Shown: positions 8,326 to 30,070, counted from the first letter of the stretch. The stretch is 64,000 bases of DNA from a phage (GCA_022897995.1 GCA_022897995.1_4763.1); one strand, 5' to 3'. The notes: generated by a model not told the origin, from the sequence alone. Program-made: numbers and translations.

Positions 8326-8333
8326 TATTTATA
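8326..8333 (-). promoter_or_regulatory. T4-type late promoter motif TATAAATA for the 53-5 operon
   Basis: Plus-strand tatttata is TATAAATA on the minus strand, about 33 nt upstream of the gp53 start; divergent region between gp53 and gp4. Confidence 0.45.
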
Positions 8334-14719: not shown

Positions 14720-14898
14720 AATTATTTGCGTGGCTAATTATTTTAAATGTAATTATTAAGACTGTTCTCGCTGGTTTACTGATGATACATAGCACGGAAC
14801 CAGAAGAAGCATTAACGTATTGTGTTGCTTATGTGTTGGGATTCTTGCTTACTGCGTGGATGTGTGATGAATATCGAAGAATTGAGGTAAAACCATGA
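14716..14898 (+). CDS. small membrane protein
   Basis: Hydrophobic ORF MKLFAWLIILNVIIKTVLAGLLMI. Confidence 0.45.
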   Translation: MKLFAWLIILNVIIKTVLAGLLMIHSTEPEEALTYCVAYVLGFLLTAWMCDEYRRIEVKP

Positions 14899-15113
14899 AA
14901 ATGACCTTTTATATCTTAGCAAGTATCATGCTTGTGATCTCTTCTGCCTTATTTGCATTTCTTACCGTTTGGGGGATCTGCACTGACGCGAAACCGTGGG
15001 ATATAGTAGAAAATACGGTTATGTTTATTATCAGTGTCATGTGTCTTTTTGATGCATTTAACTCTATCAAGGAAGAAGATCAAAAACGTCGCGAGAGAAA
15101 GCGATATAAATAA
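14895..15113 (+). CDS. small membrane protein
   Basis: Hydrophobic N-terminus, basic C-terminus. Confidence 0.45.
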   Translation: MKMTFYILASIMLVISSALFAFLTVWGICTDAKPWDIVENTVMFIISVMCLFDAFNSIKEEDQKRRERKRYK

Positions 15114-24625: not shown

Positions 24626-24911
24626 GACTATCATTAACCTTGTTATGTGGACTTTTAATTTCGTTATTGTTATTGTGGCGGGTATTGAGATTGTCAAGCA
24701 ATATCTGATACAATCCAGAAATAAACATGTTGTAATTGATATGGACTCTCAAGGAAATAAGCTGATCCTGCTAGAAGACGGTCGGGAATATTGGGTAGGT
24801 TATCCAAAGACACTACGCGGATTTATCTTTGCTATGGGTGTTTGCTTCTTTTTCCTTTGTATCTGGGTTTATGTTGGTTTAGGTCTTGCTGGATTTTTGG
24901 AGATTAATTAA
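24618..24911 (+). CDS. small membrane protein
   Basis: Two hydrophobic segments; ATGA coupling into tk. Confidence 0.45.
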   Translation: MLETIINLVMWTFNFVIVIVAGIEIVKQYLIQSRNKHVVIDMDSQGNKLILLEDGREYWVGYPKTLRGFIFAMGVCFFFLCIWVYVGLGLAGFLEIN

Positions 24912-25507
24912 TGGCACAACTATACTTCTACTATGCATCTATGAACGCTGGTAAGTCTACTTCCTTATTACAAAGTGCTTATAACTATACAGAACGTGAT
25001 ATGCGAGTATTAATTCTTAAACCAGCGATTGACAATCGAGATTCAGAAAGTGAAGTTGTTTCCCGAATTGGTCTAAGTGCTCCAGCGATCACATTCACTA
25101 AATCGGATGATCTTTTCGATTTGGTTTATCGTGAATCACTAGGTAAGCGTAGACCGGATCGCTGGCGTCCAGATGCTGTATTTGTAGATGAAGCCCAATT
25201 TATGACTAAAGAGCATGTTTTAGGCTTGTGTGCGCTTGTTGATGATGCAAATATCCCTGTACTGTGCTATGGCCTTCGCACCGACTTTCAGGGCAATCTA
25301 TTTGAAGGATCTGCGGCATTAATGGCATTTGCTGATAAACTGGTCGAAATGAAGGGTATTTGTCATTGTGGCAAGAAAGCGACTATGGTCCTTCGCGTAG
25401 ATAAAGATGGTAATGTTATTCGCGATGGTGCTCAAATAGAAGTTGGTGCAGAGGATAAATATGTTTCTGTGTGCCGTAAACATTTTATTGACGGTACTAC
25501 CAACTAA
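24911..25507 (+). CDS. tk: thymidine kinase
   Basis: ASMNAGKSTSLL P-loop, FVDEAQF, YGLRTDF, CHCGKKA match T4 Tk. Confidence 0.9.
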   Translation: MAQLYFYYASMNAGKSTSLLQSAYNYTERDMRVLILKPAIDNRDSESEVVSRIGLSAPAITFTKSDDLFDLVYRESLGKRRPDRWRPDAVFVDEAQFMTKEHVLGLCALVDDANIPVLCYGLRTDFQGNLFEGSAALMAFADKLVEMKGICHCGKKATMVLRVDKDGNVIRDGAQIEVGAEDKYVSVCRKHFIDGTTN

Positions 25508-25525
25508 GAGTTAATCATAAATAAA

Positions 25526-25567
25526 GCCCCAGATTATAAATATAACTGAATATTTTCAATCTGGGGG
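25526..25567 (+). promoter_or_regulatory. hairpin enclosing a T4 late promoter motif (TATAAATA at 25535-25542)
   Basis: Inverted repeat gccccagatt / aatctggggg flanks TATAAATA about 35 nt upstream of the 25576 ATG. Confidence 0.45.
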
Positions 25568-25575
25568 AATGACTT

Positions 25576-25878
25576 ATGTCATTTATTCGTAAAACTCTAA
25601 CAGCGGCAATATGCTTGACTGCGGTCGGAAGCGTCAGTGCTGATCAATATGATCCAACTGGTGACTTTACTGATTATTTCGACGGTGCAATGATAGTATA
25701 TGTAAACAAAATATCTCCTTCCATTGAAACCAGCCAGAAATTTCATGCCCATATTATGAAGATGTATGCTCGTAGTAAATGTATGGATTCTAAGCAGTGT
25801 TTTATTATGGGGGAATATGCCGCACAACAATTTGTTATGTTGCATAATGTGGAGAATCGAGAACATGAAATTCAGTGA
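25576..25878 (+). CDS. secreted hypothetical protein
   Basis: Signal peptide MSFIRKTLTAAICLTAVGSVSA. Confidence 0.5.
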   Translation: MSFIRKTLTAAICLTAVGSVSADQYDPTGDFTDYFDGAMIVYVNKISPSIETSQKFHAHIMKMYARSKCMDSKQCFIMGEYAAQQFVMLHNVENREHEIQ

Positions 25879-26263
25879 TTTTCGAAAGACTTCCGAAGAG
25901 GGAAAAGCTAATAAAGTTGACCGCTTTATCGGTGAATGTCTGATGAGTGTTACTTATATGCATTCTGCGCATTTTGGGGTAACTGGTCCTGGATCTTATG
26001 CAAAACATAAGGCTCTAGAAGAGTTCTATCTTGAAATGCAAGAATTGGTTGATAATTTCACTGAAACCAATATTGGGATCACTGGTCGTTATCAGCCAAC
26101 GTTGGTCGTCCGCAAGGAGATTAGCGAAATTGCCTATTTGCAAGAGTTAACGCAAATGGCTAGTGAGATTTATAATGATGTTGATAGCTCGTTACAGAGC
26201 GTTTTAGACGATATCAAAGTTCTATGCTTTAAAACCATTTATAAACTCACTCGACTGGCTTAA
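25865..26263 (+). CDS. hypothetical protein
   Basis: ATG after GGAGAATCGAGAAC; 132 aa. Confidence 0.45.
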   Translation: MKFSDFRKTSEEGKANKVDRFIGECLMSVTYMHSAHFGVTGPGSYAKHKALEEFYLEMQELVDNFTETNIGITGRYQPTLVVRKEISEIAYLQELTQMASEIYNDVDSSLQSVLDDIKVLCFKTIYKLTRLA

Positions 26264-26284
26264 TGCCAGTCACAAGGGGGATAC

Positions 26285-28429
26285 ATGCCAGAAGTAAAAG
26301 AAACTAGCATTAACACAACCATTTGGCTTCCTCATACTTTCGCGTGTTCAATTACTGCCGAATCGGAAGACCCATCTAAGACGAGGAAGGGTTATCATTG
26401 GAAAAAGGATGGTAAATTGGTCACTATGACCGATGCTCCGTCTTTTCCATTGAAGACAGTAAAGGAAGAGGACAAAACAGGCTGGTCTGTTAATGTTCGT
26501 GGGTATGCTCAAGATGACAATGAGTTTACTGGTGATTCTGTTGATATCGGTACGGAAAATTTCACCTTTGAATTGTTTGATAATCCATATGTAGAACATG
26601 TATACCCGCCACGGTCATTTATTGTTGGTGATGAAATAAAGGCAAAGATTGTTTTTCGTAGTCATATCCAGAATAATATTTCTGTAGACCTTTATTACAA
26701 CGATGGTTTGGTTGATTCCATTGATGGTGATCTAGGTTTAGACCATCGTGAATTTAAAATTGCAAAATTTGCGTGGCCTGAATTTTCCGGCACATATCGA
26801 ATGGAATTGAGCGATGAACATGATGATGTAAAATTTGTATATCCTTTCTTTGCTAGTATTGTCGAAAGTAAGGAAGTGTTTAACGTTCAAAAATACGCAC
26901 CTGCTTATTTTACCGTAGAAGATGATGCGCCGAATCAGGCCGAATATACTATTGTCCGCTACCGATTAGAGCGTGGTGATGGTACTTTGGTATATGAATC
27001 TAAAGATAAGACCTTGTATGTAACAAAACATGCTCAAGAGTCTGACGCCGGAGAATATGTTGCTTTTGTGCGTGCATATAAAGTTGTTAATGGTCCTGGG
27101 TCTGGTGAGCAATTCATCGATGGCGATAAACATCGCTTTACGGTAAATGTTAAGGAAAATGAGTTTTTCAGCCATGATTTTAGTGCTGTTGATTTTCGTT
27201 ATCCTTCTGGATCTACTGTAAACCTTGATATGCCAGTGATGCAAGCCGATAGCTCGTGGAACCGCCATTACGGTATGCTTAGTAACAACGTTTACTTTAC
27301 GTGGATGCTTGGCGGTAAGAAACTTCAAAGTAAAAAATATGGTGATGAAGGATACGACCGAATCACCCTATCTGGATTGCAATATGATAACAGCGTTGCG
27401 CTTCAATTGTTGGTTGCTCCTGCCAATCCAGCGGGTGAGCAGGTGATTCCTAACGGTCGTCCACTGTTTTATGACCGTCGTATGCTTGAGATTTATGATA
27501 AAGAGTATGATTATCGTAATATTGAAGTGGGTGAACCGATTGTTCTCAAGATCGTAGATCCTGAACCGCCAGCTAGTGATGATCCTGAACAAACACGAAC
27601 TTTGGTTATCACCAAAAACGACGTTAAAGTAACGGAACTACCGCTAGGCACTAAGGAATATAAGATCACTGACTCCGCTGACCGAGACCATAACGGAATC
27701 TGGGCGCATGAGTATCGTGATAGTCCGAGTAAAGATCCATTTAGTGCACATACCGATTTTGATATTGCTGGTCGCGCAACTTATCATGTTGAAGTTGTGC
27801 CAAATATGGAATTTGATGGTCCTCATCCGGTACAGGTGACGGAAGGGGATACGTTGACTATTGAAGCAACCATGCTTAAACCGCCAGCCTCATATGTTCC
27901 GACTTATGAGTTTAGCAAGAGTGGAGTTAAATTGCCAATTGCTGATGCAAGGACGCCGATTTATCGTAAGGCAAATGTTACCTTAGATGATGCTGGTGTT
28001 TATCGATTTGTTGCATTTGCTGATAAAAACAACAACGAAACTCTAGACCCAGGTGAGATCATCGGCTATACAAAATATGTTCAAGTTGTGGTTAATAAAC
28101 GTCCTGTTCGACCAGATGAACCTAAACCGGAAGTTAAAATTGTTACTCTGTTTAATGATTTTAGTAAAGGCCGATTTAGTCCGTGTCCGTATTGGGTAAT
28201 TGATGAACTTGTCGAACTGATGGAAGATCCGCATGGCTGGATGGGTAAACTTGAAGATGCTGTCTACTATGACTGGCAGATCACTATCTTTAATGAGTTC
28301 TTAAAAGGTAAAGATCTGTATCTTCAAGACTCCTGTAATGGTTATTGGGCTATTGTTCGTCAGAAAGACATGACAATCGAAACTGGTTACGGTCGATTTA
28401 AACACTATCACACAAATGGATTAGAGTAA
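26285..28429 (+). CDS. large multi-Ig-like-domain protein
   Basis: 714 aa with repeated Ig/I-set-like signatures (YHWKKDGK...EEDKTGWSVNV; ESDAGEYVAFV; TLDDAGVYRFVAF); distinct C-terminal domain. Confidence 0.6.
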   Translation: MPEVKETSINTTIWLPHTFACSITAESEDPSKTRKGYHWKKDGKLVTMTDAPSFPLKTVKEEDKTGWSVNVRGYAQDDNEFTGDSVDIGTENFTFELFDNPYVEHVYPPRSFIVGDEIKAKIVFRSHIQNNISVDLYYNDGLVDSIDGDLGLDHREFKIAKFAWPEFSGTYRMELSDEHDDVKFVYPFFASIVESKEVFNVQKYAPAYFTVEDDAPNQAEYTIVRYRLERGDGTLVYESKDKTLYVTKHAQESDAGEYVAFVRAYKVVNGPGSGEQFIDGDKHRFTVNVKENEFFSHDFSAVDFRYPSGSTVNLDMPVMQADSSWNRHYGMLSNNVYFTWMLGGKKLQSKKYGDEGYDRITLSGLQYDNSVALQLLVAPANPAGEQVIPNGRPLFYDRRMLEIYDKEYDYRNIEVGEPIVLKIVDPEPPASDDPEQTRTLVITKNDVKVTELPLGTKEYKITDSADRDHNGIWAHEYRDSPSKDPFSAHTDFDIAGRATYHVEVVPNMEFDGPHPVQVTEGDTLTIEATMLKPPASYVPTYEFSKSGVKLPIADARTPIYRKANVTLDDAGVYRFVAFADKNNNETLDPGEIIGYTKYVQVVVNKRPVRPDEPKPEVKIVTLFNDFSKGRFSPCPYWVIDELVELMEDPHGWMGKLEDAVYYDWQITIFNEFLKGKDLYLQDSCNGYWAIVRQKDMTIETGYGRFKHYHTNGLE

Positions 28430-28440
28430 AATGTAGTCAA

Positions 28441-28471
28441 AGCCATCCGAAAGGGTGGCTTTTTTATTTTT
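28441..28471 (+). terminator. rho-independent terminator
   Basis: agccatccgaaagggtggct hairpin plus TTTTTTATTTTT. Confidence 0.65.
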
Positions 28472-28476
28472 AGGTG

Positions 28477-28505
28477 TTGACAACCGGACCGTGGTATAGC
28501 ATAAT
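28477..28505 (+). promoter_or_regulatory. early sigma70-type promoter
   Basis: TTGACA, 17 bp spacer, CATAAT; leader CACATCGACAAC. Confidence 0.6.
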
Positions 28506-28534
28506 GCACACATCGACAACAAAGGAGAACCAAA

Positions 28535-28744
28535 ATGATTAATCCAGTAGCCGCAGCACTTGCTTCCGAAGAAACTTTGAAGTATATGGTAGAACATGCA
28601 GCAAAGAAAGGAGAAATTGTTACTGCCGATGAGATCGTAGAAACCATGCTCCGCGATCCGAAGGGTAACACGGCAAAGTTTTTCGGTGATCATCTTAAGC
28701 TGGCTTACAAAACAATTATGGAGACTGTAAAGAATGCAAAATGA
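28535..28744 (+). CDS. hypothetical early protein
   Basis: 69-aa ORF after AGGAGAACCAAA. Confidence 0.5.
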   Translation: MINPVAAALASEETLKYMVEHAAKKGEIVTADEIVETMLRDPKGNTAKFFGDHLKLAYKTIMETVKNAK

Positions 28745-29787: not shown

Positions 29788-30009
29788 ATGGCAACTGTTA
29801 AAATTATCAAATCTTCCGCTGGCTTCGGTTTCATGCGTGGCGCTAAGTACCCGATGATTATTGAAAACGTTGCCATCGAAGATGGTATGGCTAAAGTGAC
29901 CAGCCGTCAATTGTTCGAAGCTGGTGTTAAAACTGCCGAATCATGGGCGCTTCGCTATCCTAACAAAACTTGGTCCTTCTTCCTGAATGGTGAGGCTGAG
30001 ATCATTTAA
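29788..30009 (+). CDS. hypothetical early protein
   Basis: ATG after AGGAGAATCAAA; 73 aa. Confidence 0.5.
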   Translation: MATVKIIKSSAGFGFMRGAKYPMIIENVAIEDGMAKVTSRQLFEAGVKTAESWALRYPNKTWSFFLNGEAEII

Positions 30010-30012
30010 TTG

Positions 30013-30040
30013 TTGACACGGGGAGAGATCCCCGTATAAT
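30013..30040 (+). promoter_or_regulatory. early promoter with stem-loop (PeSL-type)
   Basis: TTGACA, inverted repeat cggggagagatccccg, TATAAT. Confidence 0.6.
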
Positions 30041-30070
30041 GATAGCCATACCAACTAAGGAGAATCAAAG

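Follow-up and report, generated by a model that had tools for sequence, protein, structure and literature searches.

We describe here positions 25,526 to 28,471 of a 64,000-nucleotide stretch of phage DNA (GCA_022897995.1; the whole stretch is called the window below), where three genes follow the thymidine kinase gene tk on the plus strand and end at an intrinsic terminator. We consider it probable that this region is the rI operon of a Krischvirus, in which translation of the antiholin gene rI is gated in the manner of T4 gene e, and which is extended at its 3' end by a gene for a Hoc-family decoration protein that is ancestral to the lineage and often deleted. An earlier note on this DNA had pointed to a late-type promoter heading a three-gene unit with a strong terminator at its end, and all the features that it described were found at or within 1–2 nucleotides (nt) of where it had placed them. 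The coordinates are collected in Table 1.

The window comes from a Krischvirus, one of the RB49-like phages in the T4 family. Over 25400–28500 it is 90–91 % identical, along the full length, to Enterobacteria phage Brandy, Escherichia phage UPWr_E1 and Shigella phages SSG23 and SFHK24, while more than 50 further Krischvirus records match this interval at 95–99 % only across its first third. The first gene behind tk is rI. Its product of 100 amino acids (aa) matches the T4-like virus antiholin family PF24205 (83.4 bits with a cut-off of 27, E = 1e-23, residues 4–97 of 100) and phrog_1246 'lysis inhibition' (2.5e-26). RI antiholins have a periplasmic domain behind an N-terminal signal or membrane segment; they inhibit the holin T and mediate lysis inhibition. 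The N-terminus of RI in the window, MSFIRKTLTAAICLTAVGSVSA, reads as a signal-like or membrane segment from which export is predicted, in agreement with the signal-peptide protein of the earlier note. The second gene is rI.-1. Both genes bear these names in JSE and Phi1, rI is also annotated in RB49, and the order after tk is identical; in T4 the order is tk, rI.1, rI, rI.-1, and rI.1 is absent from the window. What had been taken for a secreted protein and a 132-aa open reading frame (ORF) forming accessory cargo are thus core genes. The start of rI.-1 overlaps the 3' end of rI by 14 nt, and because of this overlap rI.-1 is probably translationally coupled to rI. The third gene, encoding a protein of 714 aa, starts 21 nt past rI.-1 and has a Shine-Dalgarno (SD) sequence of its own, AAGGGGGA. 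A terminator scan found nothing terminator-like from tk to 28439, so read-through transcripts would enter the operon from tk.

The annotation of these genes varies. In the SSG23 record (PQ351811; L001 3198–3864) rI is unannotated and a 51-aa ORF is called on the opposite strand instead, and rI.-1 is annotated from an upstream ATG as a protein of 165 aa; the same frame in the window runs over 25766–26263. An RI-based search for related loci in viral contigs returned one near-identical locus only.

All records carry the 714-aa ORF as a 'hypothetical protein'. An AlphaFold2 model from 17 homologs (mean predicted local distance difference test score, pLDDT, of 82) is all-beta up to residue 604 and consists there of six tandem Ig-like domains (residues ~1–98, 99–195, 196–290, 291–404, 405–505 and 506–604), mostly at a pLDDT of 80–94. 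Comparing the full model with the Protein Data Bank (PDB) using Foldseek, we retrieved contactin, sidekick (Ig1–6) and Dscam arrays with E values down to 3e-18; these matches are mainly generic Ig arrays and are uninformative on the C-terminal part. For the last Ig domain there are matches in Hoc-like PHROGs and in decoration proteins of phages. A string of Ig domains of Hoc-like character, as proposed in the earlier note, is therefore supported by structure prediction and by profiles, whereas Pfam on the 714-aa protein gives only Ig_3 at E = 0.008, short of the cut-off. The protein is acidic (pI 4.9), as has been reported for Hoc proteins (PMC10385173). No signal peptide was found in it, and it would thus stay in the cytoplasm, where heads assemble.

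Behind the Ig array and a proline-rich basic linker that is disordered in the model, profile comparisons identify a small alpha/beta C-terminal domain (C-domain) that is homologous to the capsid-binding domain of Hoc, with the homology beginning inside the linker at about residue 627. We aligned the C-domains of the family by hhalign to those of Hocs (T4, both SSG23 Hoc-family proteins and three metagenomic Hocs) and obtained a probability of 96.5 % with E = 7e-10 over 62 columns. When the C-domain profile was run against all PDB chains, the sole match was T4 Hoc (5vf3_Z residues 305–362, E = 2.6e-4). The profile phrog_1149 'Hoc-like head decoration' matches residues 511–698 on its last 175 positions (E = 2.4e-9) and the C-domain alone at 4.5e-6. 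Among 1.8 billion representatives, a search with the full-length profile of the family extends to the unambiguous Hocs P0042, P0054 and P0068, for which phrog_1149 scores 1e-49 to 1e-64, and the alignment covers the last Ig domain and the C-domain. The C-domain is also the best conserved part of the protein, with a mean pairwise identity of 86 % compared to 59–74 % for the Ig domains (59 % for the N-terminal one), and it is 76 % identical even in a homolog that is 44 % identical overall. Conservation that rises towards the C-domain is the pattern expected for a conserved anchor under a variable fibre.

On mature capsids, Hoc binds the gp23 hexamer at its centre. By analogy, we infer that the 714-aa protein most likely docks by its C-domain at the centre of the major-capsid-protein hexamer, with its long Ig fibre projecting from the head, and that it would form a third Hoc-like decoration beside the canonical Hoc and an 846-aa paralog. 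The 714-aa protein resembles Hoc of T4 and RB49 (5VF3 chain Z, 3SHS) in placing a homologous C-domain behind a row of Ig-like domains, in being acidic and non-essential, and in combining a conserved C-domain with a variable Ig part (PMC10385173). It differs from them in having six Ig domains as opposed to three, in a pairwise similarity that is near noise, in an additional conserved C-terminal strand with the motif ETGYGRFKHY that is not found in Hoc, and in being encoded in the rI operon, ~50 kb away from inh-hoc.

Comparison with Hoc at the level of residues and fold gives a mixed picture, with several results that weigh against docking at the hexamer. We compared the residues that have contact or structural roles in T4 Hoc (Y293, H295, R300, W309/W310, D313 and E355-S-R-N-G359; PMC10385173). 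Retained are W310 (W637), D313 (D640), S356 (S683), N358 (N685) and G359 (G686), and two changes are conservative (W309 to Y636, E355 to D682). The remaining four (4/9) are replaced: Y293 by V620, H295 by L622, R300 by S627 and R357 by C684, the last position being K in P0016. The canonical Krischvirus Hoc and the 846-aa paralog retain all these residues (YVHPIPWR...ESRNG). Pairwise BLASTP of the 714-aa protein with the SSG23 Hoc picks the same C-domain segment at E = 0.21, which is not significant. Confidence in the C-domain model is moderate (pLDDT 67 when modelled separately, 55–69 in the full-length model). Its three helices and three strands line up with the elements of T4 Hoc (PMC10385173), and the first ~30 residues, where the first two strands would be expected, are unmodelled. 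Foldseek of this model retrieved no Hoc from the PDB or BFVD and matched only the own family and a remnant of the gene in Phi1. For reference, the fold of the Hoc C-domain is a four-stranded sheet beneath a three-helix bundle. In the literature searched we found no description of the 714-aa family, no virion proteomics in the Krischvirus papers and neither proteomic nor structural data for a phage that carries the gene.

The strongest competitor to hexamer docking is that the protein derives from Hoc and sits elsewhere, its C-domain anchoring the Ig fibre at a vertex, the neck or the tail, or that it is a free Ig-like adhesin released at lysis. The replacement of four Hoc-conserved residues, the fold search, the extra C-terminal strand and the location of the gene away from the inh-hoc locus all speak for such a role, and the divergence at V620, L622, S627 and C684 could mark a new docking site on the virion. 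On the other hand the secondary-structure elements keep their order, the start of the helix (WV.DE) and the central loop (DS(C)NG) are retained, no other part of the protein is as strongly constrained as the C-domain, and both large paralogs have been lost in JSE, suggesting overlapping roles. On balance we regard a position off the hexamer as possible but doubtful, and docking at the hexamer centre remains the reading that we prefer.

The comparison with other Hoc genes of the same genomes places the protein in a wider set. SSG23 encodes a 408-aa Hoc beside inh (phrog_1149, 2e-78) and carries an intact gene of the 714-aa type elsewhere. Between inh and hoc it also encodes a protein of 846 aa (L013 10121–12661) that contains a Hoc C-domain besides numerous Ig-like domains (phrog_1149, 9e-50). 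By these profile matches the 714-aa protein would be the third member of the Hoc family. In JSE both large paralogs carry internal deletions; its 846-aa gene lacks the part equivalent to SSG23 L013 10153–12549 (~2.4 kb) and keeps the ends (L019 5798–6064). Genomes with two Hocs and Hocs with up to 10 Ig domains have already been described (PMC10385173). Muldoon and PG7 each have a second Hoc, and a Hoc of Muldoon has 1174 aa and 10 Ig domains (Fokine et al. 2023, PMC10385173). These cases likewise show more than one Hoc gene per genome and a variable number of Ig domains joined to a single capsid-binding module; they were found by BLAST with the T4 C-domain, unlike the more diverged 714-aa family, which would be a third paralog. 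What is new relative to the literature that we searched is therefore the 714-aa family, the place of its gene within the rI operon and the set of three paralogs, the concept of multiple Hocs being known. As a tentative extension, for which we claim little confidence, wild Krischviruses may carry three Hoc-family proteins (408, 846 and 714 aa) with different Ig fibres that compete for hexamer centres, the virion being a mosaic whose adhesive surface is set by their relative expression, with the 714-aa copy wired to the antiholin late promoter and not to the head-gene cluster and the long paralogs repeatedly lost by microhomology deletion on laboratory hosts.

The 846-aa paralog of SSG23 is itself unannotated. 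Two families of 'unknown function', phrog_19377 and phrog_32100, match its first 34 and last 37 residues, and these families may have been built from remnants of the 846-aa gene.

The second element of the operon is an inverted repeat between tk and rI. Its core of nine perfect pairs joins CCCCAGATT (25527–25535) to AATCTGGGG (25558–25566), and a repeat search extends it to a hairpin with 17-nt arms that are 88 % complementary around a 6-nt loop. The repeat given in the earlier note is real in this core, apart from the outer g/g that it named, which is unpaired. The late-promoter motif that it placed within the repeat is an exact TATAAATA, situated in the 5' arm and not in the loop. The box is intergenic and its end lies 33 nt before the rI ATG at 25576, close to the ~35 nt first estimated. 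The RNA folds with −28.2 kcal/mol (z = −6.1), and none of 200 shuffles is as good. The earlier note had seen the hairpin and overlooked its likely masking of the rI ribosome-binding site: the SD of rI is GGGGG at 25563–25567, ending 8 nt before the ATG, and four of its five G's lie within the 3' arm. By partition-function folding, the SD is unpaired with a mean probability of 0.02 in read-through RNA, and this value rises to 0.24 when the RNA begins at 25546–25550.

T4 late promoters initiate about 6 nt downstream of the box in a manner dependent on gp55, gp33 and gp45. Since the T4 late box occupies −13 to −6 (PMC1524935), the late transcript is predicted to start at ~25548, within the hairpin loop. 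We hypothesize that early promoters upstream of tk read through the operon, in T4 fashion, and that late in infection the gp55-type promoter would transcribe it as well. In the read-through RNA the promoter-bearing 5' arm would be paired to the rI SD and rI would be poorly translated; the same probably holds for rI.-1, which overlaps the end of rI. The late RNA would begin without the 5' arm, the ribosome-binding site would be freed, and the antiholin would be made alongside the late holin. The hairpin thus most likely gates the translation of rI.

This arrangement has a precedent. A late promoter located in the 5' strand of an SD-sequestering hairpin has been proven in two cases, T4 gene e and the intron endonuclease I-TevI, and the gene e structure lowers lysozyme synthesis ~100-fold on early transcripts (PMC3014915). 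The rI hairpin shares with both the late promoter in the 5' arm, the ribosome-binding site under the 3' arm and a late RNA that begins inside the structure, and it shares with gene e that the gated gene is a lysis-timing gene. It is unlike them in that the gene is an antiholin and not an endolysin or a homing endonuclease, that the SD is predicted to open only in part in late RNA, and that the gate is here a prediction from sequence.

The hairpin is conserved in a way that is consistent with such a function. Within Krischvirus its arms are invariant, and its loop and the upstream bases vary; JK32 differs from the window in the loop and flank, including a 6-nt deletion, and has both arms and the box identical. 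In each of four metagenomic relatives a hairpin links the SD to bases that immediately precede the box or span it, and the 3' arm masks the SD in all six Krischvirus-like lineages. In an alignment of seven sequences we found two compensatory pairs (11–44, C-G to U-A; 13–42, G-C to A-U). Paired cells make up 86.6 % of this alignment, whereas shifting the partner by a single column gives 54.5 % and 63.2 %, and the covariation score is above that of all 500 shuffles. The most distant contig, L016, uses another register, an 18-bp helix of GCCATTCCTTTATAA with TTATAGGGGGATGGC, and still joins the pre-promoter sequence to the SD.

Several observations count against the gate or limit its reach. The accessibility of the SD in late RNA is just moderate, and a second small hairpin at the rI start codon persists there. 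The covariation comes from a small sample of seven sequences and two compensatory pairs. Furthermore, nothing was found that would block translation of the 714-aa gene from read-through RNA, and as this gene has its own SD, its 'late' timing is less secure than that of rI. The start-codon hairpin is found in the early and late RNA forms and in all lineages; its conservation is uninformative because its 3' arm is coding sequence.

Alternatively, the hairpin may have no part in gating and act as an mRNA-end element, which stabilises tk transcripts at their 3' end, serves for their processing or weakly separates tk from rI as a terminator. Such an element is suggested by Cronobacter phage VP8 and Enterobacter phage myPSH1140, where a GC-rich hairpin followed by TTT stands immediately upstream of TATAAATA, clear of the SD of the first gene. 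In the Krischvirus-like lineages, however, the SD lies under the 3' arm in six out of six cases, and L016 re-registers its helix yet covers the SD and spacer, which would be needless for a pure 3'-end element. A role as terminator of tk was rejected, as no T run follows the stem and the terminator scan makes no call. We therefore judge an mRNA-end element to be unlikely and retain the gate on rI as the preferred explanation. Because the hairpin of VP8 and myPSH1140 lies wholly upstream of the box and looks terminator-like, the SD-masking version appears to be confined to the Krischvirus lineage, which has no rI.1 and in which rI directly follows the promoter.

Two promoters are documented for the rI operon of T4, a late one in the interval from tk to rI.1 and an early one situated 3.3 kb upstream (PMC2962797), and in T4 we find TATAAATA 25 nt before rI.1. 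An equivalent box precedes the rI operon in VP8 (Muldoonvirus), myPSH1140 (Karamvirus) and Morganella phage MP1 (Gualtarvirus); before the operon of Aeromonas phage phiAS4 no equivalent late box was found. Given the documented T4 promoter and these equivalents in other genera, the late promoter within the 'early' region is an inherited and already known feature of the T4 family, and the late timing in an early neighbourhood that had been presented as an anomaly is not one. The operon of the window agrees with that of T4 in its position after tk, in the overlapping ends of rI and rI.-1, in TATAAATA directly upstream and in possible early read-through from upstream. It departs from T4 by the absence of rI.1 between the promoter and rI, by the SD-masking hairpin around the promoter, which is not obvious in T4, and by the 2.1-kb Hoc-like gene added before the terminator.

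The box could conceivably be a chance match, the unit being expressed solely by early read-through. The 8-mer is found 3 times in the 64 kb compared to 5.7 times expected, and this absence of enrichment tells against a promoter, so that the weight must rest on position and conservation. The box is invariant in all the Krischvirus-like loci compared (six lineages, seven sequences) while neighbouring bases change, and it has its counterpart in T4 and three other genera. We consider a chance match very unlikely and infer that the promoter is used. A separate late promoter for the 714-aa gene was also considered and was ruled out, since there is no (A/T)ATAAATA in 25543–28429.

Other exact TATAAATA boxes and relaxed AATAAATA boxes are located at 15105–15112 (+), 8326–8333 (−), 11227 (+) and 11100 (−). 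The box at 15105 overlaps the 3' end of a small membrane-protein ORF (14895–15113).

The history of the 714-aa gene can be read from its remnants. The whole gene is present in 6 of 59 matching phage records, and a word-indexed search of a collection of 5.8 billion proteins returned only 16 clusters of 706–718 aa that are 44–91 % identical, none of them a Hoc. In Phi1 the first ~90 nt of the gene, with the start codon now ATA, are fused to the last ~200 nt, and the part corresponding to window 26374–28221 is missing; Phi1 ORF084.1 is the C-domain remnant. JSE has two different deletions (26429–28137 and 28177–28390). The aligned segments overlap by 8–14 nt at the Phi1 and JSE deletion junctions, which indicates microhomology. 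Among the partial matches listed, 19 out of 19 end at the JSE-type junction, at window 26428. The order tk, rI, rI.-1, 714-aa-type gene is kept in contigs whose proteins are 72, 59, 58 and 44 % identical. This synteny, together with the remnants, argues that the 714-aa gene is ancestral to the lineage, dispensable and deleted in most sequenced isolates, its variable state reflecting loss and not gain. The proposal of the earlier note that promoter, secreted protein, ORF and Ig protein were acquired as a unit, in our reading an accessory structural or adhesion module brought into the early region by horizontal transfer, finds apparent support at first sight in the 6 of 59 records, which look like an insertion. 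It is highly improbable: it is refuted for rI and rI.-1, core genes at this place in T4 and many genera, and it conflicts for the 714-aa gene with 5' and 3' remnants that have different junctions and a mutated start codon and with synteny retained to 44 % protein identity. The structure of the junctions speaks against the remnants being secondary acquisitions.

These results have consequences for annotation, as the 714-aa 'hypothetical protein' can be assigned to the Hoc family and the small ORFs of Phi1 and JSE at this locus are deletion remnants. In nature, RB49-like phages may have as many as three Hoc-type Ig fibres, and the classical laboratory strains, including those behind the structural work on Hoc, retain only one. 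Hoc has been linked to adherence to mucus, to immunogenicity and to the dispersal of virions (PMC10385173), and phages that retain the long paralogs, such as SSG23, Brandy, UPWr_E1 and JK32, may for this reason behave differently in vivo. If the gate is true, the device of a late promoter inside an SD-masking hairpin extends from the endolysin to the antiholin, with natural covariation. None of these points overturns current understanding.

Table 1. Features of the rI operon and its borders in the window
Feature	Position	Strand	Basis or remark
tk (thymidine kinase)	24911–25507	+	Pfam TK 1e-51
Hairpin 5' arm	25527–25543	+	17 nt; contains the late-promoter box
T4-type late promoter box TATAAATA	25535–25542	+	exact match
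Hairpin 3' arm	25550–25566	+	17 nt; masks the rI SD
Second small hairpin GAAUGAC-UUAU-GUCAUUU at rI start codon and codons 2–3	25567–25584	+	folding
rI (antiholin, lysis-inhibition regulator), 100 aa	25576–25878	+	PF24205, phrog_1246, synteny
rI.-1, 132 aa	25865–26263	+	PF19174 DUF5856 2.4e-20; phrog_858 3.5e-43
7-bp hairpin GACUGGC-UUAAU-GCCAGUC across rI.-1 stop codon	26253–26271	+	fold of 26220–26340; no T run
Gene for 714-aa protein	26285–28429	+	ORF; six Ig-like domains, linker, Hoc-type C-domain
Six Ig-like domains, residues 1–604	26285–28096	+	AlphaFold2 model, Foldseek
Proline-rich basic linker, residues 605–633	28097–28183	+	pLDDT <50 for 609–633; pI 10.0
C-terminal Hoc-type domain, residues 634–714 and stop	28184–28429	+	profile homology
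Intrinsic terminator closing the operon	28439–28462 (or to 28472)	+	stem-loop and T run
Sigma-70-type early promoter of next transcription unit, TTGACA-17-CATAAT	28477–28505	+	11/12 match

The terminator that closes the operon consists of a 10-pair stem with 5 G-C pairs, followed by the tail TTTATTTTTA. It is retained behind the gene remnants in JSE and Phi1 and is annotated as a terminator in G2248. The hairpin across the rI.-1 stop codon has the 3' arm GTTAGTC in Phi1 and JSE, where the pairing is retained through G-U. A search of 24800–28700 against Rfam gave two chance-level matches, both under the gathering scores.

The surroundings of the operon differ between relatives. In the divergent metagenomic relative L014, whose 714-aa-type protein is 59 % identical, a cytosine DNA methylase gene (PF00145, 6246–7214) comes right after the Hoc-like gene, which is not so in the window, and a Dmd antitoxin homolog (PF17587, 7843–8040) is found further downstream, with none at the corresponding place in the window. 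SSG23 (L001 7617–8526), JSE and Phi1 carry a ~780-bp gp38-like tail-fibre adhesin or assembly gene where the window has a gap of 37 nt (30009–30047). No gp38-like sequence was found anywhere in the 64-kb window by tblastn, and its phage may use a different receptor-recognition arrangement.

Past the terminator, near-consensus sigma-70 promoters are located on the plus strand at 28477, 29719, 30013 and 30263, each before one of the successive small ORFs. They consist of TTGACA, a spacer of 16–18 nt and (T/C/G)ATAAT, matching at 11–12 of 12 positions. Such a dense series is typical of T4-type early promoters. The first of them belongs to the next unit and marks the boundary of the rI operon.

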